Assembly: GCA_905234795.1 (NCBI GenBank) | Contig: CAJOIQ010000004.1 | Span: 1,582 to 65,581, forward strand | DNA length: 64,000 bases | Origin: an uncultured Bacteroidales bacterium | GTDB lineage: Bacteria; Bacteroidota; Bacteroidia; Bacteroidales; UBA932 | Reading direction: 5' to 3' | In this document: positions 50,989 through 61,503 of the stretch, one piece after another | Layout: every line of letters begins with the position of its first letter | How positions within the stretch are numbered: the stretch's first letter is position 1 | Position numbers and translations under genes: made by a program | The notes under the pieces: generated by a model | Databases searched by the model: none | Told to the model about the DNA's origin: nothing | Seen by the model: only the letters and a program-made list of their open reading frames with translations

Positions 50989-51303
50989 TTATAAGTTAGC
51001 GTTAATTCTTGCGACAAGGTCGGCCTTGGGCATGGCACCCACGGTCTTGTCCACCACCTGGCCGCCCTTGAAGAACAGCAGGGTGGGGATACTCATGATT
51101 CGGAACTGGGCGGCCACTTCGTCGGCATCGTCCACATTCACCTTCACCACCTCCATCTTACCCGCCATTTCCTCTTCTACCTCGTCCAGGATGGGAGAAA
51201 GCATGCGGCACGGACCGCACCACGTGGCCCAGAAATCCACAATAACCAGCTTCTCGCTCTGGAGAAGCTCGTTGAAATTGGTATTGGTTGCAACTTTTGC
51301 CAT
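50989..51303 (-). CDS. trxA: thioredoxin
   Basis: WCGPC active site. Confidence 0.96.
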   Translation of the reverse strand: MAKVATNTNFNELLQSEKLVIVDFWATWCGPCRMLSPILDEVEEEMAGKMEVVKVNVDDADEVAAQFRIMSIPTLLFFKGGQVVDKTVGAMPKADLVARINANL

Positions 51304-51413: not shown

Positions 51414-51554
51414 TATTATGACCGCGTTGACAACCAGAACGCATAGAACGGCGATTCCGTGTCAACGCGGCCGCGTTTTTCCCAAAAAAGGCCGATTCTG
51501 TTGCCGCGTTGACAAAAAATCGGCCTCTGGTGCATTCTGCGTGTCAACGCGGCT
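51414..51554. repeat. BIME-like doublet (unit A 51421-51471, 31-nt linker, unit B 51503-51553); left terminal repeat of the 6.4-kb segment
   Basis: Each unit is (G)CCGCGTTGACA-N27-TGTCAACGCGGC; near-identical inverted copy at 57660-57800. Confidence 0.9.
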
Positions 51555-51575
51555 GGGGAAGAACACGGGGGCCTG

Positions 51576-51606
51576 TTTGAATTCTCGGGGCTTTTGGGTA
51601 CCTTTG
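51576..51606 (+). promoter_or_regulatory. Full Bacteroidota sigma-A promoter for the EamA gene
   Basis: TTTG (51576-51579), 19-nt spacer, TACCTTTG (51599-51606). Confidence 0.7.
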
Positions 51607-51616
51607 CTCTTAAGTT

Positions 51617-53119
51617 ATGGACGAGAGACGCTTTCGATATCACCTTCTTGCACTGGCGGTTGTGGCAGTGTGGGGTGTGACCTTTGTCTCCACGAAGGTG
51701 CTCATTGGGGCAGGAATGCACCCGGTGGCCATATTTCTGGTCCGTTTTATCCTGGCCTACGCAGGAATCTGGCTGTATATTGGCCTCACAAGGCAGAAGG
51801 CTCAACTCTGGTACGGTTGGAAAGACGAACTCGTTTTCCTGATTCTGGGGGTGACCGGCGGGTCCTTCTATTTCCTCACGGAGAACACCGCCCTGGCCTA
51901 TACACAGGCGTGTAATGTGGCTTTCCTGGTTTGTTCTGCGCCGCTTTTTACGGCCATTTTCACCTTGATTTTCAAGCGGTTGTGGAAAGGACGTTTCGCC
52001 GATGGCCTGGAGAACATCCGCCTGGGATGGCCCCTCATAGGGGGGACGTTGCTGGCACTCGGAGGAATGGCCATCGTGGTTTTTGACGGAGCCAGGCTGC
52101 AGCTATCTGCTAAAGGGGACCTGCTTGCCATCGGCGCCGCCCTCTGCTGGGCTGCCTACAGTCTGTTTATGGCCCAGATGACCAAGGATTATGGAACTGT
52201 AACGGCAACCAGGAAAGTATTTTTCTACGGGCTCTTCACCATTTTGCCTTTCATCGGCGGCTACCGGGATTCCTTTACTCCCGCCATCCTGGGCCAGACG
52301 GCCGTGTGGACCAACCTCCTCTTCCTGGGACTCATCGCTTCCCTGGTGTGCTTCATCTTTTGGAACCTGGTAATGGAAAAGCTGGGGAACGTCACTTCCA
52401 CCAATTACGTGTACCTGAACCCGGTCTTCACCCTTCTTACGGCCACAGTGCTTCTGGGAGAGCGGATGACCCTGCTGGCAGGCATCGGCTGTGCGGCCAT
52501 CCTGGCTGGTGTCATCTGGGCCGGCGGCGCCCATGCTCCGGCCGACAAAGAAATGAAGCGCGCCCTCCACACGCCCCTTGTTGTCCTTTTCTGCCTTTTC
52601 CTATTGCCGGGTTGCTCCAGCCTGCGCGGAAAGGAAGCTCTACGGCAGGGAATCGAGTCTATCTCCTTGATGAAGCAGCTGGGTACCGTGGAATGCCGGG
52701 TGCGGAAGATCATCAAGGCCGATGACCAGGGCGAATGGTACAAGATTGGGGACCGCAAAATCCTTTTCACCTGCACGGCTTATCTCAAGGCCGGCATCGA
52801 CCTTTCTTCCTTCAGTGCCGATGACATCGTCACGGACCGCCTGGCCAGGAAAGTGACCGTCACCCTCCCTCACGCCACCCTTCTTTCGCTGGACATTCCC
52901 CCCTCCGAGATTCGGGAAGAGTACGATCAGGTGACCCTCTTCCGCTCATCATTTTCCATCCAGGAGCGAAACGACCTTCTCAAGCAGGGGGAACGGCAAA
53001 TCCGCAACAGCGTCCCTTCCCTGGGCATTCTCCAAAAAGCCGAGGAGAACGCCCGGAAGTTTTTTGAATCGGCCTTCGGAGCCATGGGTTTCACTACCGT
53101 GGAGGTGGAGTTTAGATAG
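51617..53119 (+). CDS. EamA/DMT transporter read in frame into a DUF4230-type lipoprotein
   Basis: First ~300 aa: two EamA repeats (WG.TF, GDLLA, YVYLNPVF). From internal ATG 52553: MKRALHT...LLPGC lipobox plus LKAGIDL and VTLPHATLL. Confidence 0.75.
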   Translation: MDERRFRYHLLALAVVAVWGVTFVSTKVLIGAGMHPVAIFLVRFILAYAGIWLYIGLTRQKAQLWYGWKDELVFLILGVTGGSFYFLTENTALAYTQACNVAFLVCSAPLFTAIFTLIFKRLWKGRFADGLENIRLGWPLIGGTLLALGGMAIVVFDGARLQLSAKGDLLAIGAALCWAAYSLFMAQMTKDYGTVTATRKVFFYGLFTILPFIGGYRDSFTPAILGQTAVWTNLLFLGLIASLVCFIFWNLVMEKLGNVTSTNYVYLNPVFTLLTATVLLGERMTLLAGIGCAAILAGVIWAGGAHAPADKEMKRALHTPLVVLFCLFLLPGCSSLRGKEALRQGIESISLMKQLGTVECRVRKIIKADDQGEWYKIGDRKILFTCTAYLKAGIDLSSFSADDIVTDRLARKVTVTLPHATLLSLDIPPSEIREEYDQVTLFRSSFSIQERNDLLKQGERQIRNSVPSLGILQKAEENARKFFESAFGAMGFTTVEVEFR

Positions 53120-53128
53120 GGAGGTGCC

Positions 53129-53764
53129 ATGAAAAAAACAATAATATTTTTTCTGTCCATCCTGATGCTGGCCGGCCTCTTCTTGATCCGTTCCCGGCAC
53201 AGGACGGAACGCGGCCTTTCCATTGACGACACGCCCGTCATCGCTACCCGGATACGGGCTCTGGGAGAACTGACCACCGCCTGTTTCTACGACGAAATCA
53301 TCATTTCCGACACCAAAGAAAACGCCCTGTCTTCTTCCCAGCTGGGTTCTCTGGCAAAGGAGAAGCTGGGGAAGGACCTGGACGACCATCTGGTCATCAT
53401 CGCCCGCGGAACCGTCCGTGCAGGAATCGACCTCCGGCGGATGGATGACCACAATATCCGCGTTGCGGGAGATACCGTCGTCGTCCGGCTGCCTTATCCG
53501 CAGTATCTGGACATCATCCTCAACCCCTCCGACTTCGAAGTGTTTGCCGAATCGGGCCGATGGACCCAGCGACAGTTCTCCAGGCTCCAGGAATCAGCCC
53601 GGCGCAGACTGCTCATGGAGGCCGATGACGCCGGCCTTCTGCAAAAAGCCTACGACGGCGCGATGGACGCCATCGTCGATCTTCTTACCGCCTGCGGCTA
53701 TACCTACATCCGCTTCGACCACCCCGGCTCCCAACTCCGGATGCCTTCGCCCCAGCCGCGTTGA
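53129..53764 (+). CDS. DUF4230-type protein
   Basis: N-terminal anchor, IRALGELTT, VRAGIDL and VVVRLPYPQ; paralog of the preceding C-terminal domain. Confidence 0.8.
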   Translation: MKKTIIFFLSILMLAGLFLIRSRHRTERGLSIDDTPVIATRIRALGELTTACFYDEIIISDTKENALSSSQLGSLAKEKLGKDLDDHLVIIARGTVRAGIDLRRMDDHNIRVAGDTVVVRLPYPQYLDIILNPSDFEVFAESGRWTQRQFSRLQESARRRLLMEADDAGLLQKAYDGAMDAIVDLLTACGYTYIRFDHPGSQLRMPSPQPR

Positions 53765-53805
53765 CACGCAGAATGCACCAGGGGCCGATTTTTTGTCGAC
53801 GCGGC
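53755..53805. repeat. Single unit B repeat between the DUF4230 gene and the transposase 3' end
   Basis: GCCGCGTTGACA-N27-TGTCGACGCGGC; contains the TGA of the DUF4230 gene and ends 1 nt before the transposase stop. Confidence 0.9.
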
Positions 53806-53806
53806 A

Positions 53807-54724
53807 TTACAGTATTACCAGGCAACGCCGAATCTGGGCATCGGGGAGGTGGAAATCGTATTGCAGCTGTTGGGCCAGGCGCTGTTTCTGGGTGTCAGTG
53901 AGTTGGTAGACGGACGTCGCTCCATATCTGGGGAGAAGGTCGTGGTCGATTAAGTGGCAGACATCCAGATCCTGCAAACGGGAGCGGCTAAACTGACGCC
54001 CATTCTCGTTCTTCAGCATCTGAGCGATTGACTTTTCATCGGCATTTTCTACCATCTCCAGTGTGATGGGGGCTCCCGTCCGGTCTTGTTCCTGATCGCG
54101 CGACCAACTCTCGTCTGTGAGTCGGTTCATCTGGTACAGGTAGTTGCGGGGTGAGGCATAGTATTGCTCGGCCCGGCGAATCTCCATAAAACTGCTGCGG
54201 AGGAAAACGCCCTCGGCATTCATCTGGTACTGGTCCGGGAACTCCGAATGTCGGGGTAGATAAGAGGCAATCTCCTGCCGGGACAATGACGCCGCTGTTT
54301 CTGACGACAGGCCGATATCCTCGGCAAAGAGGTCTCGCGCCGTGCAATACTTATAGCCCAGCGCCGTTGCCGCCGCACCGTGATGAAGCCCGTTCCGGAG
54401 AATGTAGTTCTGCAAAACCATCTGGTGATAGAAGCCCTCCACTTTCAACAGATAAGTGTATTTTTCTCCGAAACGGCCCTTCCGGTCATATTTGTGATTG
54501 AAGTATTTGGTGTAGGACATCCTGAGCGCTGCGGCAAACGCCAACGGCGTACTCGTAAACACATTCTGGTGTACGTGAGTGGACATTTCCGCATCCACGA
54601 GGATTTCCGTATCAGAAGCAAATGCCCGTAGCGCCATCAGATTCAACATCATGTTGTGGTCTTCCTCGTCCCGAAACATCACCTCCTGATGGGATGTGAA
54701 ACAGATATGATACGATTCCTTCAT
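53807..54724 (-). mobile_element. HUH/Y1 (IS200-like) transposase, REP-associated tyrosine transposase (RAYT) type, with C-terminal extension
   Basis: N-terminal YHI, F.D.ED, HUH motif MSTHVH, YFNHKYDRKGRF, and catalytic Tyr in YILRNGLHHG (cf. RAYT YIxxNP); adjacent palindromic repeats. Confidence 0.8.
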
Positions 54725-54892
54725 GGAACAAACATAAGGCAAAGTGGATACAAAACCAAGGACTGTTTTGCCATCGGCTAAAAGAATTTACGTTTTGACG
54801 GATTGAGGTGCATTTTTTTAAGTTTTAGCCGATTATTCGGCTGAAAAATATCTGTTTTGCAGGTTGCCAAGCTACGATTCTAGAATAATTCG

Positions 54893-54900
54893 TATATTTG
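54893..54900 (+). promoter_or_regulatory. -7 element (TATATTTG) upstream of the MTase leader
   Basis: TAnnTTTG match about 250 nt upstream of ATG 55153. Confidence 0.6.
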
Positions 54901-54903
54901 TAG

Positions 54904-55128
54904 TGTATCCCCGGTGGATACAAGACATATGTAATTTAGCATTTGCTATTTATTCGGTTGCCCGAAACCTGAGAAATTTCACCTGTCAACCCGGATGAGT
55001 CAGCGAATGTCTGCGCCTTGGCGTGGACTGGACTTATCTGTTGACTAGGCTTTCTCAGGGCCGCGGGCATGGATTAGAAAAGTCCATGCCTTTTTCGTGC
55101 CCTGGAGCGCCTGAGTCAAGGATAAGTC
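54904..55128 (+). ncRNA. candidate structured leader/attenuator RNA with a 17-codon uORF (54995-55048)
   Basis: Hairpin tgtatcc/ggataca, long stem 54968-54990 with 55040-55059, terminator, and downstream segment 55109-55128 complementary to 55031-55050. Confidence 0.55.
55066..55095 (+). terminator. intrinsic terminator inside the MTase leader
   Basis: ggcatgga-(9-nt loop)-tccatgcc-ttttt. Confidence 0.75.
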
Positions 55129-55152
55129 GCAAGTGCCGTAAGAGCGCAGCTT

Positions 55153-56331
55153 ATGGCCAACAATTCGAATCTTGGCGCCGCTAAGGCTGCCAAGAACGAC
55201 GAGTTCTACACCCAGTATGCCGATATCCAAAAAGAAGTCAATGCATACCTGGAGTACAACCCGGACACCTTCCGTGACAAGACGGTGCTTTTGCCGTGCG
55301 ACGACCCGGAATGGAGCAATTTCACCCGATTCTTTGCCCAGAACTTCGAACGCCTGGGTTTGAAACGGCTCATCAGCACTTCTTACGCCGTTGAGAGCAA
55401 GAAGTACAAGGACTACGAGCCCACCCTTTTTGAGACAGAGAGTCCCTTGTTCGACATGGACAAGACCCGCATCAAGGGCAAAATCTTCGAACTTACCCGG
55501 GACACCAACCAGAATGGCCGCATCGACATCGATGACCTCGAGTGGCATTACTTGGAGGGTGATGGTGACTTCCGCAGTCCGGAAGTGTGCGCCCTCCGCG
55601 ACCAGGCCGATATCATCGTTACCAATCCTCCGTTCTCGTTATTCAGAGAGTTCGTTGCGTGGATAATTAATTCAAATAAACAGTTTCTTATCATAGGGCA
55701 TCAAGGAAGTATTGGGTACAATGAAATCTTTCCCCTGATTCAGTTCAACAAGATGTGGTTGGGAATGGGATTCGCCGGTGGTGCCGGGCATTTTATAAGC
55801 CCTTATGAAGATCATGCTGTTGCTGGGAACCATAAAAAAGGAATGATACGAGTTTCGGGTGTAACATGGTTTACAAACATAGATCATGGTCGACGTCATC
55901 AGCCGATGATACTGATGAGCATGAAAGACAACATACGATATGGGAAGCACAAGGATCTTAAAGAAAGTGGATATCGAACATATGACAATTACGATGCTCT
56001 TGAGGTCCCGTATTCAGATGCCATTCCTTCCGACTACGAAGGGGTTATGGGTGTTCCAATCACTTATTTGGATAAGTACTGTCCGGATCAATTCGAAATC
56101 GTTGGTATTACAAAAACTAAGTTTAAATTGGCCTCCAAGATTTACCCGGAGCAGATTCAGATCAATAAAGACGGAACAAAACAAAGGGTAACAAAGCTAA
56201 ACGACGGTCCTGTACTAAAGATAAATAATCCTCCTGCTAACCAGGTGTACTATATGGTTGGGAACGAAATGTATATTCAATTATACACTCGAATTCTTAT
56301 TCGCAAAAAACATAATGACCAGGCTGAATAG
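55153..56331 (+). CDS. adenine-specific DNA methyltransferase, EcoRI family
   Basis: AKNDEFYTQY, LPCDDPEWSNF, GDGDFRS, motif IV TNPPFSLFREF, and YDNYDALEVP...MGVPITYLDKY. Confidence 0.88.
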   Translation: MANNSNLGAAKAAKNDEFYTQYADIQKEVNAYLEYNPDTFRDKTVLLPCDDPEWSNFTRFFAQNFERLGLKRLISTSYAVESKKYKDYEPTLFETESPLFDMDKTRIKGKIFELTRDTNQNGRIDIDDLEWHYLEGDGDFRSPEVCALRDQADIIVTNPPFSLFREFVAWIINSNKQFLIIGHQGSIGYNEIFPLIQFNKMWLGMGFAGGAGHFISPYEDHAVAGNHKKGMIRVSGVTWFTNIDHGRRHQPMILMSMKDNIRYGKHKDLKESGYRTYDNYDALEVPYSDAIPSDYEGVMGVPITYLDKYCPDQFEIVGITKTKFKLASKIYPEQIQINKDGTKQRVTKLNDGPVLKINNPPANQVYYMVGNEMYIQLYTRILIRKKHNDQAE

Positions 56332-56466
56332 ACAGAGGCTTCGGACGGCGTAGCCGCCCGTGGCTTCGTGAACGGGAGGGGCCCAGAGGAGATTGCCGGT
56401 CGAAGCCGGCAATGACGAATGGGAGGGATAGTCCCGCAGGGACGTACCGGCCCGAAGCCTCTGTCT
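56330..56466. mobile_element. MITE-like element (core 56333-56463) with a nested GTCATT...AATCTCC repeat
   Basis: 15-bp IR agacagaggcttcgg/ccgaagcctctgtct; inverted homolog of 2665-2769; nested unit at 56388-56416. Confidence 0.8.
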
Positions 56467-56488
56467 GTCAGCCCAAAAAGACAAAGAT

Positions 56489-57661
56489 ATGATAGCACGA
56501 CTTGTAACCGACTGGAGCATCGGCGACATTTGCAAAGGATTCCAGTACAACGAATACGAAGGCAAGGGGCTGTACGGCCTGTCCGGGCGGCTGACCATTC
56601 AGCCCGAATTCCAGCGCCATTACCTTTATGCCGAGAACGGCGGCAAGAAGGAGGTAGATGTCATCCAGTCCGTGCGGAACGGCTATCCGCTGGGCCTCAT
56701 CTATTTCTCCAAGGTAGGAGAAGACCGTTATGAGGTCCTCGACGGCCAGCAGCGCATCACCTCGCTGGGCCGTTTCATCACCGAGAAATTCGCCTGGATT
56801 GATGCCGATGGCAAGCCCTGGTACTTCACTGCCTTCAATAAAGACGAGCAGGAGAAGTTCCTGAACACCAAACTGCTCATCTATGTCTGTGAAGGCACGG
56901 AGAAGGAAATCAAGGACTGGTTCCGCACCATCAACATTGTCGGCATTCCGCTCAACAATCAGGAGACGCTGAATGCCGTATATTCCGGGCCGTTTGTAAC
57001 CAAGGCCAAAGAGGAGTTCTCCAACTCCAACAACACCAACATCAACAAGTGGAACTGCTTCATTCCCGGTACCGCTAAGCGGCAGGACTATCTGGCCGCC
57101 GCGCTGGACTGGGTAAGCAAGGGAAATGTGGAAGAGTATATGGCGGCCCATCGGTACGACGATGACATCACCGAACTCAAGGCCTATTTCACTTCCGTCA
57201 TCGACTGGATTACCTCCGTTTTTGACATCACGCCGGAGAAGGAAATGTGCGGGCTCAAGTGGGGTGAGCTCTACGAGCGCTTCCATAAATCGGCCTATGA
57301 TCCGGCCGCCGTGGCCGAAAAGGTCCGGGAACTGTACGAGAGCTTCTACGTGAAAGAGAAGAGGGGCATCTACGAATACATACTGGACGGCTGCCAGAAC
57401 ACGAAACTGCTCAACGTCCGCGTGTTTGATGAGCCCACCAAAAAGGCTGTTTATGCCCAGCAGACGGCCGCTGCCAGGGAGAAGGGCGAATCCAACTGCC
57501 CGCTATGCGCCATCGGCCACGATGCCAATCACACCAAAATCTGGGACTTGAAGGATATGGACGCCGACCACGTCACCGCGTGGAGCAGGGGCGGCGCGAC
57601 GGACATCGGCAATTGCCAGATGCTTTGCAAAACCCACAACCGCGCCAAAGGTAACCGTTAG
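56489..57661 (+). CDS. DUF262 (GmrS-like) plus HNH endonuclease domain protein
   Basis: QPEFQRHY and [11 protein letters not shown]262 motifs; C-terminal CPLC...[12 protein letters not shown]...[16 protein letters not shown]. Confidence 0.88.
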
Positions 57662-57800
57662 CCGCGTTGACACGCAGAATGCACCAGAGGCCGATTTTTT
57701 GTCAACGTGGCAATGAAATCGGCCCTTTTTGGGAAAAACGCAGCCGCGTTGACACGGAATCGCCGTTCTACGCGTTCTGGATGTCAACGCGGCCATAATA
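57660..57800. repeat. BIME-like doublet (unit B 57661-57711, 31-nt linker, unit A 57743-57793); right terminal repeat
   Basis: Inverted near-identical copy of 51414-51554, including terminal tattatg/cataata. Confidence 0.9.
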
Positions 57801-57820
57801 AAATGTTGCCTCCAGAGGGG

Positions 57821-57972
57821 AGAGAGACTCCCGCCGGGGGGCTTGTCCACCCCCGGACGAGGGCAGGGGGAGGGGCCCGCCGGAGACAAGTTCCCAAAGG
57901 GGACGAAGGAAACGGTGGGAGGGGCCGGAATGGAGCGAAGCGGAATGGAGTCCCCCCGGTGGGAGTCTCTCT
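57821..57972. repeat. 152-bp MITE-like element with 21-bp terminal inverted repeats
   Basis: agagagactcccgccgggggg (57821-57841) and ccccccggtgggagtctctct (57952-57972), one mismatch. Confidence 0.65.
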
Positions 57973-57992
57973 TCCCGCTGCCCTAGCAACCC

Positions 57993-58286
57993 TTACAGCG
58001 CATCCTCAACGGGGAGGACGTAGGCGCGGAGGCCGAGGTCCTTGTTGGCGGCGTCGGTGGCGCGGAGGGCGTCCATCACCTTGGGGACAAGGGCGTCTTC
58101 CAGGGCGGTGAAAAGGGCGTGGTTCTGGGTGGGCCAGGCGTGGTTGCCCAGGTGGGGCTCGCCGTCCACGGTGCCGCGGCCGCCCACCTGTTCCCACACG
58201 GTATACCCGCGCTGTCCAAAACCCGCCAGCAGCTCTACAATCTCCTGATTGTAAGCCTGGTTATATGCTACGAATATTGCTTTCAT
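57993..58286 (-). CDS. P-II-like small protein associated with the RND operon (PG0541-type)
   Basis: MKAIFVAYNQA...GYTVWEQVGGRG...EPHLG..AWP, a GlnB-like pattern; last gene of the efflux operon. Start set at ATG 58286. Confidence 0.7.
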   Translation of the reverse strand: MKAIFVAYNQAYNQEIVELLAGFGQRGYTVWEQVGGRGTVDGEPHLGNHAWPTQNHALFTALEDALVPKVMDALRATDAANKDLGLRAYVLPVEDAL

Positions 58287-58310
58287 CTTTTGTTTCTTTG
58301 TCTTTTCCAA

Positions 58311-58372
58311 GGCGCTCTGCAGAGCGCCCGGCCAGAGGCCGCAGGGGTTTTTAAGGGGGCAGCGCCCCCTCA
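58311..58372 (+). repeat. REP-like element, intergenic homolog of the trmB insertion
   Basis: Perfect palindrome ggcgctctgcagagcgcc, then cggcc..aggccgc..agggggcagcgccccctca. Confidence 0.75.
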
Positions 58373-58374
58373 GA

Positions 58375-61300
58375 CTATTTTTGCGCGCGAGCCTTGCGTT
58401 TCTGCCGGTGCTCCGTAAATCCGCAATAAAGAACCGGAATGAGCACCAGGGTAATCAAAGTGGAGATAGACAAACCCCAGGCAACGGTGATACCCAGGCC
58501 GCGCCACATCTCGGAGCCTTCGCCCTGACCCAGGGCCATGGGCAGCATGCCCAGCACGGTGGTGAGGGTGGTCATGAGGATAGGACGCAGACGGCTCTTG
58601 GCAGCCACCACGGAGGCGTCACGCACGCTGTAGCCGCGTTCCTGCAACAGGATGGTATAGTCGATGAGCACGATACCGTTTTTCACCACAATACCCAGCA
58701 GGATGATAATACCCACCATGCCCATCATGCCGATGGCCATGTTGTTCACCAGGTTGCCCAGGGCAATGCCCGTGAAGGCAAACGGGATGGAGAACATGAT
58801 GACGAACGGGCCCATCAAACTCTCGAACTGGGAGGCCATCACCATGTACACCAGGATCACGATGAGCGCCACCAGCAGCAGCAGGGAACCGAACATCTCC
58901 TGCTGTTCCTCGTAGTCACCGGCGATGGCGTAGGAAAGCTCGGCGGGGAGAGGTTCGGCCGCCATCATCTCTTCGATGACCTCAACGGCCTCCGACAAAG
59001 CGGTACCCCGTTTAACCATACCTGTGGCCGATATGTAACGCTCACGGTTCTTGCGCTGGATGGTGGGCGGAACCTTGGATTCCACAATGCGGCCCAGGTC
59101 TCGCACTTTGATGCCCTGCCCGGCGGCATTGTACACCACGATGTTCTCGATGTCGTCCATGCTCTGGCGGAACTCCGGGGCATAGCGCACGCGGATGTTG
59201 TACTCGTCACCGTCTTCCCGGAAGAAAGAGCCCACGGAACCGCTCATGGCGGCGGAAACGGCCGCGGCGGCGGTGGTGGAAGTGAGCCCGTTGAGGGCCA
59301 GTTTCTCACGGTCGAAGTCCACTTCATATTCGGGCGTATAGTCGTCTCGGCCCAGCATTACCTGGGTGAACTTGCCGCTCTCCAGCATCTGTTCCCGGTA
59401 CATCTTGGCGGCCCGCTCGGTTTCCTCGAAGTCGTAGCCATAGATTTCCAGGACCACGCGGGAAGCGCCGCCCATACCCATGCCGCCTTCCGTCACGTTG
59501 AACTTCTTCAGTTCCGGGAACATGCGGAGGTCGGCACGCACCACATCGGCAATCTCCGACGTTGTGCGGAAGGGAATGCCCTTTTCGGCCTGCAGCGCCT
59601 TACGCTCCGTGGCCGTGTGCACGTTGATATTGTAGGAGATGATGTAGGTGCCGTTGGAACGCATGTTGGCGAAGGTGTTGTTGGCATCGGCCTGGCCGAA
59701 GTTGTAGCTGAGCACCTTGATTTCGGGCACATCCTGCCGGATTTGGGCATAGATGGCCGCCGCCACTTCTCGCGTGACGTCCTGCGCCGTGCCGATGGGA
59801 AGTTCGGCCGATACCGTCACACGGCCCTGGTCCTGCGTGGGGAAGAACTCCGTCTTCATCTTGGGACCATAGATGCCCAGCACCGCCGCAAAGATGACCA
59901 GCGCAGCCAGCAGGATGAGCTTCTTGTGCCGCATGCACCAGGCAATCATGCGGCTGTATCCGGCCGACAGGCCGTCCAGGAATGCGTTCACGGGCTTGAA
60001 CAGAATCTCATGGAAGCGGGAAGAGGAACCACCGCGGCCCAGCAGCTGCGAGCACATCATGGGCACTAGCGTAAGGGCTGCCGTGGTGGACACAATCATG
60101 ATGATGGACACAATCCAGCCCAGCTGCTTGAACATGATACCGGTCATGCCGTTGATCATGGTGAGCGGCAGGAACACGCACAGCATGGTGAGCGTGGAGG
60201 CTATGACGGAGATACCTACCTCGGCCGTTCCGTGTACGGCGGCCTCCTTGGGCTTCTCTCCCCTTTCGATATGGGAGGTCACGTTCTCCAGCACCACGAT
60301 GGCGTCGTCCACCACCATACCCACGGCAATGGCCAGGGCGCTCATGGAGATGATGTTCAGGGTGTTACCCGTAAAGTACAGGTACATGAGGGAGGCCAGC
60401 AGGGCCATGGGGATGGACAGCACCACAATGAAGGTACCCTTCCATCGGCCCAGGAAAAGGAACACCACCAGCATCACCACCAGGAAGGTGATGAGGATGG
60501 TCTCCAGCAGGGAGCGGATGGTGTTGAGGATGTTGCGGGAAGAGTCCACCACCGTGGTGATCTTGATATCCGAGGGCAGGTTGTGTTCCAGCGTGGCCAG
60601 GGTTTTCTTCACCTGCTTGATGACGTTCACCGTATTGTAGCCGGACTGCTTCTGGATAATGATCTGGGCGCCGCGGGTACCGTTGGTGTAGGACTCCTGG
60701 GATTTTTCCTCCAGGCCGTCCTCCACGCGGGCCACATCCCGCAGATAGACGGCCGAACCGTTGCGGTTGCCCACAACGATGTCCAGCAGTTCCTGCGGAT
60801 CCTCGAATTCCTTCTTGATGCGCAGGGAATAGGTGCTGGAGCCGATGTCGATGCTGCCGGAAGGCACATTGCGGTTCTCGGCGGCAATAATGCTGGAAAG
60901 GGAGCTGATGCTGAGGCCGTAGGCTTCCAGCTTGGCGGGGTCGCAGTACACCTTGATTTCACGGTTGGGAGCGCCGGTCACCGACACCGTACCCACACCG
61001 GAAACGCGGGCCAGCGGCGTGGCCACGCGGTCGTCCAGGATTTTGTTCAGGGCCGATACGCTTTGGTCGGCGGTGCAGGCCAGGATCATGATGGGCATGT
61101 CGTCGGCGCTGAACTTGAAGATGGTGGGATTGGAGGCGCCGTCGGGCAGGGAGGACTTGATCATGTCCAGCTTGTCACGGACGTCGTTGGTTGCCACCTC
61201 GATGTCGATACCGTACTGGAATTCCAGCGTGAGCATGGACACGTTCTCACGGGAGGAGGAGCTCACGTTCTTGAGGTTGGCCACGGAGTTGAGGGAGTTC

Positions 61301-61503
61301 TCCAGCAGCTTGGTAAGGTTGGTCTCCACGTCTTCGGCCGATGCCCCGGGATAGGAGCTCATCACCATGATGGTGTTGGATTCCATGTCGGGGTAGTTGT
61401 CCACCGGCAGCTGCACCAGGGCGAAAACGCCCAGGATGGCAAACGCCAGGAACACCAGGGCCGTGGTGACGGGTTTTTTGACGGCTGTTCTGTAGATGCT
61501 CAT
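58375..61503 (-). CDS. RND efflux permease (AcrB/AcrD/AcrF family)
   Basis: AVKKPVT, GMVVDDAIVVLENV, GIVVKNGIVLIDY and RLRPILMTT motifs; 1042 aa. Confidence 0.95.
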   Translation of the reverse strand: MSIYRTAVKKPVTTALVFLAFAILGVFALVQLPVDNYPDMESNTIMVMSSYPGASAEDVETNLTKLLENSLNSVANLKNVSSSSRENVSMLTLEFQYGIDIEVATNDVRDKLDMIKSSLPDGASNPTIFKFSADDMPIMILACTADQSVSALNKILDDRVATPLARVSGVGTVSVTGAPNREIKVYCDPAKLEAYGLSISSLSSIIAAENRNVPSGSIDIGSSTYSLRIKKEFEDPQELLDIVVGNRNGSAVYLRDVARVEDGLEEKSQESYTNGTRGAQIIIQKQSGYNTVNVIKQVKKTLATLEHNLPSDIKITTVVDSSRNILNTIRSLLETILITFLVVMLVVFLFLGRWKGTFIVVLSIPMALLASLMYLYFTGNTLNIISMSALAIAVGMVVDDAIVVLENVTSHIERGEKPKEAAVHGTAEVGISVIASTLTMLCVFLPLTMINGMTGIMFKQLGWIVSIIMIVSTTAALTLVPMMCSQLLGRGGSSSRFHEILFKPVNAFLDGLSAGYSRMIAWCMRHKKLILLAALVIFAAVLGIYGPKMKTEFFPTQDQGRVTVSAELPIGTAQDVTREVAAAIYAQIRQDVPEIKVLSYNFGQADANNTFANMRSNGTYIISYNINVHTATERKALQAEKGIPFRTTSEIADVVRADLRMFPELKKFNVTEGGMGMGGASRVVLEIYGYDFEETERAAKMYREQMLESGKFTQVMLGRDDYTPEYEVDFDREKLALNGLTSTTAAAAVSAAMSGSVGSFFREDGDEYNIRVRYAPEFRQSMDDIENIVVYNAAGQGIKVRDLGRIVESKVPPTIQRKNRERYISATGMVKRGTALSEAVEVIEEMMAAEPLPAELSYAIAGDYEEQQEMFGSLLLLVALIVILVYMVMASQFESLMGPFVIMFSIPFAFTGIALGNLVNNMAIGMMGMVGIIILLGIVVKNGIVLIDYTILLQERGYSVRDASVVAAKSRLRPILMTTLTTVLGMLPMALGQGEGSEMWRGLGITVAWGLSISTLITLVLIPVLYCGFTEHRQKRKARAQK

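Follow-up and report, generated by a model that had tools for sequence, protein, structure and literature searches.

Organization of the locus

The 64,000-nt window analysed in this study (assembly GCA_905234795.1, contig CAJOIQ010000004.1) originates from an uncultured rumen bacterium of the order Bacteroidales. Between the trxA gene and the operon of a resistance-nodulation-division (RND) efflux transporter it contains a 6.4-kb locus, which is bounded by inverted copies of a 141-nt sequence and comprises a gene for a 305-aa protein predicted to be related to REP-associated tyrosine transposases (RAYTs; REP, repetitive extragenic palindromic), a type II restriction-modification (R-M) cassette and two genes encoding proteins with the DUF4230 domain (Table 1). 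As argued below, this locus is probably a chromosomal REPtron that represents a new RAYT/REP clade, with insertions and inversions concentrated at the repeat clusters, and not a transposon carrying cargo.

An inverted-repeat search of the window placed the two 141-nt arms 6105 nt apart and revealed that they are 94% complementary; a direct count gave 9 mismatches between them, and the arm runs from TATTATG to CGCGGCT. They had been recognized in the initial annotation as near-identical inverted copies of about 140 nt with a third repeat unit between them, and both statements were correct, since the third unit (53755-53805) forms a 57-nt inverted pair (96%) with positions 51502-51558. As stated in the same annotation, no target-site duplication is evident, and none was found in the follow-up. 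The proposed gene content (EamA-DUF4230, DUF4230, methyltransferase, DUF262-HNH, trxA and RND) was confirmed by Pfam and PADLOC.

Table 1. Features of the 6.4-kb locus and its flanks (coordinates refer to the window)
Feature	Coordinates	Strand	Remarks
trxA (thioredoxin), conserved left flank	50989..51303	-	Pfam; synteny
Left REP doublet (like a bacterial interspersed mosaic element, BIME)	51414..51554		Type-2 unit 51421-51471, 31-nt spacer, type-1 unit 51503-51553; loops opposite; inverted copy of the right doublet
Invertible 2.2-kb segment	51554..53755		Between inverted type-1 units; orientation differs among contigs and runs
EamA (drug/metabolite transporter, DMT) fused to DUF4230, 500 aa	51617..53119	+	Pfam domains; GC content; relatives
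DUF4230 protein, 211 aa	53129..53764	+	TGA stop inside the stem of a REP unit
Single type-1 REP unit	53755..53805		Abuts the RAYT stop codon
Predicted RAYT-like Y1 HUH protein, 305 aa	53807..54724	-	Start at conserved MKESYH; H50, H52, Y107
Predicted type II R-M cassette	54880..57660	+	Left limit approximate (54880-54935); right limit is the endonuclease stop touching a REP unit
EcoRI-family N6-adenine methyltransferase	55153..56331	+	PF13651, 7.9e-124; PADLOC MTase_II, 2.5e-84; divergent from the RAYT gene
GmrSD_N (DUF262) + HNH endonuclease	56489..57661	+	PADLOC type II restriction endonuclease PDLC03418, 7.7e-79, full length
Right REP doublet	57660..57800		Type-1 unit 57661-57711, spacer, type-2 unit 57743-57793
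P-II-like gene (57993-58310) and RND transporter (58375-61503), conserved right flank	57993..61503	-	Pfam; synteny

The 305-aa protein

For the 305-aa open reading frame (ORF), neither Pfam, searched up to E ≤ 10, nor NCBIfam nor PADLOC gave a match, and phmmer and profile searches found none among PDB sequences. A word-indexed search identified 335 close proteins, all of them unnamed, and an exhaustive search at E ≤ 0.001 extended the family to 1,454 representative clusters (50% identity), all annotated as 'hypothetical'. In an alignment of 74 family members, which reached down to 24% identity, residues R18, H50, H52, Y107, H114, H115, D252, C256 and R300 were invariant; the histidine and tyrosine motifs of the window protein are STHVH and YILRNG. 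The Pfam model Y1_Tnp (PF01797), which the window protein itself does not reach, was matched by 40 of the 74 members (best E-value 2.3e-6).

The AlphaFold model computed from the 74-sequence alignment had a pLDDT of 97.5 and a pTM of 0.93, while the one computed with only 24 close homologues was unusable (pLDDT 49). The top match of a Foldseek search against the PDB was 4er8_A, the Escherichia coli RAYT bound to a REP hairpin, and matches 2-30 were all transposases of the IS200/IS608/ISDra2 type. The structural match spans the N-terminal ~130 residues (the HUH/Tyr domain, with H50, H52 and Y107), and the C-terminal ~170 residues form a conserved helical domain, for which no structural match was obtained. 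Judging from the modelled fold, the invariant H50, H52 and Y107 and the Y1_Tnp-matching relatives, we therefore identify the protein as a member of a divergent clade of predicted RAYT-like Y1 HUH enzymes. Its designation as an HUH/Y1 transposase in the initial annotation thus lacked a matching sequence model for the window protein, but agrees with the predicted structure and with the relatives.

With the IS200/IS605 elements (IS608, ISDra2) the protein shares the catalytic fold and, as we infer, the recognition of subterminal hairpins on single-stranded DNA. Unlike these elements, the locus carries an apparently single-copy gene that keeps its position within clades, and it has neither a TnpB-like ORF (tnpB) nor an asymmetric pair of left and right ends.

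RAYT subclasses rich in Bacteroidetes have been described, namely TnpA-Y1 2.6 (Bertels group 5) and 2.4 (Quentin et al. 2018, PMC6006769). According to that study, members of subclass 2.6 have a mean length of 179 aa, the motifs NH[LIV]H and YIH[QN]NP and 'atypical secondary structures', and large C-terminal domains are tied to subclasses not associated with REPs. The present family comes from the same phylum as subclasses 2.6 and 2.4, but is set apart from the published description of subclass 2.6 in its length of 305 aa, its motifs THVH and YILRNG and its large C-terminal domain.

Hairpin repeat units

Each of the 141-nt arms is a doublet of 51-nt hairpin units, composed of a perfect 12-bp palindromic stem (GCCGCGTTGACA / TGTCAACGCGGC) and a 27-nt loop. 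Within a doublet, a spacer of 31 nt lies between the units, which results in a period of 82 bp, start to start. The loop, which occurs in two subtypes (type-1 and type-2), sets the orientation of the unit. The order in the window is type-2 forward and type-1 reverse in the left doublet, type-1 forward at the single unit, and type-1 forward and type-2 reverse in the right doublet. These five units lie within 6.4 kb; the remaining 57.6 kb of the window contain none, and there is no complete unit outside positions 51421-57793. The stem 12-mer, with up to 2 mismatches allowed, was found 19 times in the window versus 7.2 times expected, a number reached in none of 100 shuffles, and the matches with 0 or 1 mismatch are only the ten arms of the five units. 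As single-stranded DNA, the doublet has a predicted folding energy of -42 kcal/mol (z = -6.6). No Rfam match was obtained for the hairpin units. Contigs of the same species carry one or two units beside the RAYT stop codon (two in L009, L011 and run X1; L and X numbers denote individual loci and public sequencing runs, respectively).

Several of the units are in close contact with the ends of genes: (i) the TGA stop of the shorter DUF4230 gene sits in the stem GCCGCGTTGACA (53755-53764), (ii) a distance of 1 nt separates the RAYT stop codon from a REP unit (53805-53809), and (iii) the TAG of the endonuclease gene overlaps the first base of a REP unit (57659-57661). This abutting or overlapping of stop codons suggests a role at the ends of transcripts, and the hairpins, which abut four stop codons, may act as terminators or RNA stabilisers.

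A second potential pairing was observed in 67 units (window positions 57690-57725 and 51485-51520; loci L001 and L003-L010): at a fixed offset, the first part of the spacer, AATCGGCC, complements the 3' half of the type-1 loop, GGCCGATT. Locus L001 has a compensatory variant of this loop-spacer pairing, GGCCGTTT/AAACGGCC. The loop-spacer stem overlaps the main hairpin and would form a pseudoknot or an alternative fold.

Association of the repeats with the RAYT family

Comparative analysis revealed that tight flanking of the RAYT gene by these hairpins is the usual state, observed at more than 90 related loci: metagenome contigs (L001-L006), GTDB genomes (L020, L033, L034, L038) and most of loci L045-L121, including most of the 80 loci of the JGI set. 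Units of the same kind, also spaced at 82 bp, flank the RAYT homologues of 62-80% identity. The stems are clade-specific, each with a matching 3' arm (GCGTTGAC, GCCTCGAC, GCGTTTGC, GCGAATCC, GTGTTGAC). In the comparison with more distant RAYT clades the stems differ (GCCGCCTCGACA, GCCGCGTTTGCA, GCCGCGAATCCA, GCCGTGTTGACA, GCCATGTTGCA), but the loops are still recognisably related. Long arrays were also noted beside the RAYT gene in some relatives (L105, 83-2127; L020, 4422-6660; L078, 10919-11337): six units upstream of the gene with five downstream, three units upstream with seven downstream, or a row of six, all at a period of ~82-93 bp.

Among 70 distinct units, changes on both sides of the stem were found in 8 of the 12 base pairs, with 112 such cells versus 32.5 in shuffles, and the signal collapsed once the stem partners were slid against each other. 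This compensatory covariation of the stems points to selection on the hairpin structure. The units had been chosen by requiring 11 of 12 paired positions, which has to be kept in mind in reading these figures; the homology of the loops, the position beside the RAYT gene and the 82-bp spacing are independent of that selection.

As is classical for REP/RAYT systems, the units are dispersed in the sister genome RUG395: at least 45 of them, grouped into arrays of 2-7 units, were found at 12 loci spread over ten contigs, and the RAYT gene is present at only one of these loci. In the species of the window units are few (~5-8 in the metagenome contigs), and a search of three runs with the right arm (57655-57800) returned essentially only the copies at this locus and one or two others. 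On the strength of these comparisons we regard the hairpins as the putative cognate, REP/BIME-like repeats of this RAYT. The view expressed in the initial annotation, that REP/BIME repeats flank a RAYT gene, is supported by the units beside its homologues at more than 90 loci and by the dispersal in RUG395.

Inversions between repeat clusters

The 2.2-kb segment carrying EamA::DUF4230 and DUF4230 was found inverted in eight public runs of two studies, including X2-X8. In runs X2-X5, all from one study, contigs of 3.0-3.5 kb read from the RAYT gene through a unit into the start of EamA, by which one junction is seen; in the window it is the end of DUF4230, not the start of EamA, that adjoins the RAYT gene. 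Runs X6, X7 and X8, from the second study, contained both junctions, including the one that leads from the end of DUF4230 through the left doublet into trxA. The strains with the inverted segment are 95-99% identical to the window. The orientation seen in the window was present in five ENA contigs (L007-L011, assembled with k up to 141) and in run X13.

Inversions were also detected between species. In L073, compared with L087, the whole repeat-bounded block (endonuclease, methylase, RAYT and a GH92 gene) stands reversed between its flanks; in L087, compared with L094, only GH92 is reversed; and among six species the RAYT gene changes its orientation with respect to trxA and RND.

It could be argued that the arrangement is static, with the arms being relics of a local duplication and the within-species inversion an assembly artefact, since the Logan contigs were built with k=31, the two type-1 units of the window have 32 identical bases in common, and the contigs of run X1 break at the units. 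However, 3.0-3.5-kb contigs cross the repeat in flipped orientation in eight runs of two studies, with the reciprocal junction in three of them; the between-species inversions occur in diverged, long JGI contigs, for which mis-joining is implausible; and the copy number of the units varies also among contigs assembled with k up to 141. We consider a static locus most improbable.

All units share the palindromic stem, so that any two clusters offer inverted homology. The inversions would be due to homologous recombination or template switching at the hairpins rather than to catalysis by the RAYT. A segment that is bounded by inverted repeats and occurs in both orientations in natural populations resembles repeat-mediated chromosomal inversions and the invertons of Bacteroidales; unlike at the latter, no recombinase family, and thus no site-specific recombinase, was found among the genes called within 20 kb, and the inverted repeats are the REP units themselves. 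A phase-variable promoter switch was considered as well and rejected: a promoter-like TTTG...TAcctTTG motif, noticed by eye and taken for the promoter of the operon that flips, appears to lie inside the flipped segment, so that no ON/OFF switch is apparent, and there is no invertase gene nearby.

The restriction-modification cassette

The R-M cassette has a GC content of 50%, compared with 57.8% for the window. The homology shared by all its copies begins ~220-270 nt before the methylase start and ends at the endonuclease stop, which is in contact with a REP unit. Between loci L090 and L087, which have shared flanks, the difference is a clean 2.6-kb indel; one of its limits is the end of a REP unit, and the other lies ~90 nt upstream of the RAYT start. 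The RAYTs with a linked cassette belong to at least three sub-clades and are interspersed with RAYT-only loci. Methylase and endonuclease occur together in all RAYT-linked R-M loci and in the RAYT-less loci L128-L134, and the same pair was found elsewhere, in other organisms, with neither a RAYT gene nor hairpins; the endonuclease is 86-88% identical in these cases, and one copy lies beside the gene of a dockerin protein. The genes show what is expected of a type II R-M system of predicted activity, i.e. an adjacent methyltransferase and endonuclease, from known R-M families, that are kept together.

The RAYTs of L053 and L098 are 99% identical (97% at synonymous sites), while their methylases are 72% identical and their endonucleases 49% at synonymous sites. 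An unchanged RAYT beside diverged R-M genes indicates a swap of the R-M allele. Across loci L049-L098 the amino acid identity of the endonuclease is ~91%, versus ~72% for RAYT and ~75% for the methylase, with synonymous sites near saturation; for a restriction enzyme, purifying selection of this strength is unusual. In the methylase gene, the central part (~55700-56290) is highly divergent. Since the synonymous sites are saturated, tree congruence among RAYT, methylase and endonuclease could not be used.

The difference in conservation (~91% against ~72%) might suggest that the endonuclease is a functional partner of the RAYT. We rejected this as the principal explanation, because the same gene pair occurs at 86-88% identity without a RAYT gene or hairpins. 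From the comparison of these copies, the cassette appears to be an independent, widespread type II R-M unit that has settled at the boundary between a hairpin and the putative RAYT promoter. The 'selfish R-M' concept of mobile type II cassettes is reportedly due to Kobayashi. The present cassette is similar to such mobile cassettes in its low GC content, clean-edged presence/absence polymorphism, allele replacement and occurrence in unrelated genomes. It differs from them in landing repeatedly at one micro-site, between REP hairpin and RAYT promoter, and in the unusual conservation of its endonuclease in spite of saturated synonymous sites. A literature search retrieved no paper that links RAYTs to R-M systems.

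Variable content of the locus and the question of mobility

The segment with EamA::DUF4230 and DUF4230 has a GC content of 56.9%, i.e. that of native DNA (57.8% for the window). These genes are beside the RAYT gene at no other RAYT locus examined, and the EamA homologues of relatives (83-94% identity) are stand-alone housekeeping genes (310 aa) in unrelated neighbourhoods. Apart from this species, the in-frame EamA::DUF4230 fusion was observed in a single Logan protein (P0270, 89% identical). At the junction of the fusion and the next gene (53107-53176), the sequence is replaced in strains X2-X8, with 68 nt skipped and 98 nt inserted.

Contig L007 is identical to the window, four more contigs of the same species (L008-L011) have the same gene order, and in all same-species contigs the block lies between trxA and the RND operon. 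The contents of this site in relatives are different: (i) L038 and L045 contain only units, RAYT and units, (ii) L049 and L051 contain units, endonuclease, methylase, RAYT and units, (iii) L098 and L034 contain a peptidase M23 gene, endonuclease, methylase, RAYT and units, with the R-M genes and RAYT inverted with respect to the window, and (iv) L053 has an extra IS3 transposase. In L053 (1-2600 and 6754-7053) this IS3-type transposase, with rve domains, separates the REP doublet from the R-M cassette, and two P-II-like genes in inverted orientation flank the whole block. A second REP cluster was found 2-6 kb from the RAYT gene in ~15 of ~35 long loci; the genes between the two include those of a GH92 mannosidase, an esterase/radical-SAM pair, a peptidase M23 and an IS3 element. 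These locus-by-locus differences indicate that the 'cargo' consists of changing neighbours and is not a constant payload. Since the content of one and the same site varies, and R-M and EamA genes are found elsewhere, the inner genes have been gained and lost independently of the repeat ends.

The initial annotation had proposed that the repeats delimit a cassette, or nested cassettes, able to move or to invert. In this form the 6.4-kb segment or the nested cassettes would be a mobile cargo element, with the 141-nt arms as its termini and the RAYT mobilising it together with the defence module. The 94% identity of the arms and their tight bracketing of the RAYT, the contact of units with the stop codons of the outermost genes, the presence of the REP-endonuclease-methylase-RAYT-REP block in several neighbourhoods and the varying location of the RAYT between clades are all in line with this idea. 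However, this species has a single copy, whose position between trxA and RND is constant; sister species have the RAYT at the same site without cargo; the cargo varies by locus and is made up of ordinary genes; the R-M pair exists without repeats or RAYT; and there is no target duplication. Moreover, Y1 transposases are known to use subterminal hairpins of the same strand, not inverted termini. In the reads, an outer-arm circle or inversion, or an empty trxA-P-II site, was represented by only two weak joints with sides of 29-30 nt (51304->58114 and 51072->58258), which were not counted. The hallmarks of a cargo transposon, i.e. the same ends in different flanks, empty sites and a target duplication, were thus not found, and we consider mobility of this kind very unlikely.

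Of the original proposal, inversion is supported, both for the 2.2-kb segment and for whole blocks between species, while movement as a unit is not. Synteny between trxA and RND exposed inversions and cargo-free sister sites (L038, L045), but no solid empty site within the species; the reads contained both junctions of the inverted 51554-53755 segment, but no well-supported circle junction; and the homologues had the same repeats at more than 90 loci with varying neighbours, but no constant mobile payload. As to the two observations that had been named as arguing against a cassette, the inner genes do vary independently of the ends, and in this species the units number a handful, not hundreds of scattered copies.

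Proposed origin of the arrangement

Thus, the locus would consist of a single RAYT-type Y1 HUH gene with clusters of 51-nt REP hairpins, placed between trxA and the RND efflux operon, and the 141-nt 'ends' would be two REP doublets in opposite orientation, not transposon termini. The R-M cassette was probably acquired horizontally and integrated precisely where a REP unit meets the RAYT promoter, the native EamA::DUF4230 and DUF4230 pair was probably relocated to the locus in this species only, and recombination between any two REP clusters would flip the intervening DNA. By analogy with E. coli TnpA-REP, the RAYT may cleave and maintain the hairpins on single-stranded DNA.

Several observations weigh against this interpretation. 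The species of the window has only ~5-8 units, whose known copies are all at this locus, and dispersal is seen only in relatives. The position of the RAYT gene is constant within clades (the trxA-RND and c12-c14 neighbourhoods) and different between them, which implies that the gene is not strictly immobile. The REP-endonuclease-methylase-RAYT-REP block recurs in at least 12 loci and in at least three different genomic neighbourhoods, which could reflect past movement as a unit. Finally, the within-species inversion was detected in Logan contigs, in which a de Bruijn mis-join may arise at an exact inverted repeat of ≥31 nt; to this worry may be opposed the agreement of eight runs of two studies and the long-k assemblies that cross the repeat in the other orientation.

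A larger role could be ascribed to the enzyme, if the RAYT catalysed the inversions and the capture of DNA beside REP hairpins and the R-M cassette was inserted by hairpin-targeted strand transfer. This would fit the concentration of inversions and changes in unit number at RAYT-proximal clusters in many species, the position of R-M within ~5 nt of the hairpin foot in every RAYT-linked copy, and the density of second REP clusters 2-6 kb from the RAYT, which is far greater than elsewhere. However, single strands are the substrate of Y1 enzymes, whereas inversion of a duplex needs both strands; RecA or template switching would find sufficient substrates in repeats of 51-141 nt with 94-96% identity; and R-M copies outside this clade lack hairpins. 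Such catalysis by the RAYT seems to us rather unlikely. With similar reserve we mention that the RAYT and the hairpin clusters might form an active recombination module, in which nicks at the REP feet promote inversion of the DNA between two clusters and create a favoured entry point for foreign cassettes. If true, this doubtful scheme would explain why, in three RAYT sub-clades, only a few bases separate R-M from a hairpin, why R-M alleles are swapped beside an unchanged RAYT, and why RAYT-adjacent genes (EamA-DUF4230, GH92) flip between strains and species.

An additional element of ~168 nt was noticed outside the locus (57813-57980), where it separates the right REP arm from the P-II-like gene. 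It has 29-bp terminal inverted repeats (90% complementary) and a predicted folding energy of -49 kcal/mol (z = -3.4). Contig L009 and one contig of run X1 lack it owing to a 144-nt deletion (57828->57973), and the depth of metagenome runs is very high around it.

Comparison with the REPtron of E. coli and significance

The E. coli REPtron, reportedly the subject of work by Nunvar in 2010 and Ton-Hoang in 2012, is said to comprise TnpA-REP (RAYT, YafM) together with REP/BIME sequences. The present locus resembles it in that (i) an apparently single-copy Y1 HUH gene is flanked by clusters of its own palindromic hairpins, (ii) hairpins occur at other extragenic sites (here, in the sister genome RUG395), (iii) the best structural match of the predicted protein is the E. 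coli enzyme (4er8), and (iv) repeats and protein co-vary between lineages. There are also clear differences. The protein is 305 aa long, with an extra conserved C-terminal domain of ~170 aa, and has the motifs STHVH and YILRNG (YxxxNP in E. coli) with no Pfam match; the units are 51 nt long, with a conserved 27-nt loop and a strict 82-bp period, compared with the ~35-nt REPs of E. coli; they carry no evident GTAG tag, and their copy number in this species is very low.

To our knowledge, RAYT/REP systems are understood almost wholly from Gammaproteobacteria, and their cellular role is still debated. The present analysis defines, in uncultured rumen Bacteroidales, a large and previously unannotated clade of predicted RAYTs (1,454 clusters) together with its putative cognate hairpin, whose arrays keep a strict 82-bp period and whose stems clearly covary. 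It also provides natural cases in which REP clusters serve as breakpoints of strain-level inversions and as the insertion point of an R-M cassette. For annotation, it implies that pairs of inverted REP clusters should not be taken for the ends of transposons. The effect of RAYT/REP loci on genome structure thereby becomes testable in this group of bacteria.

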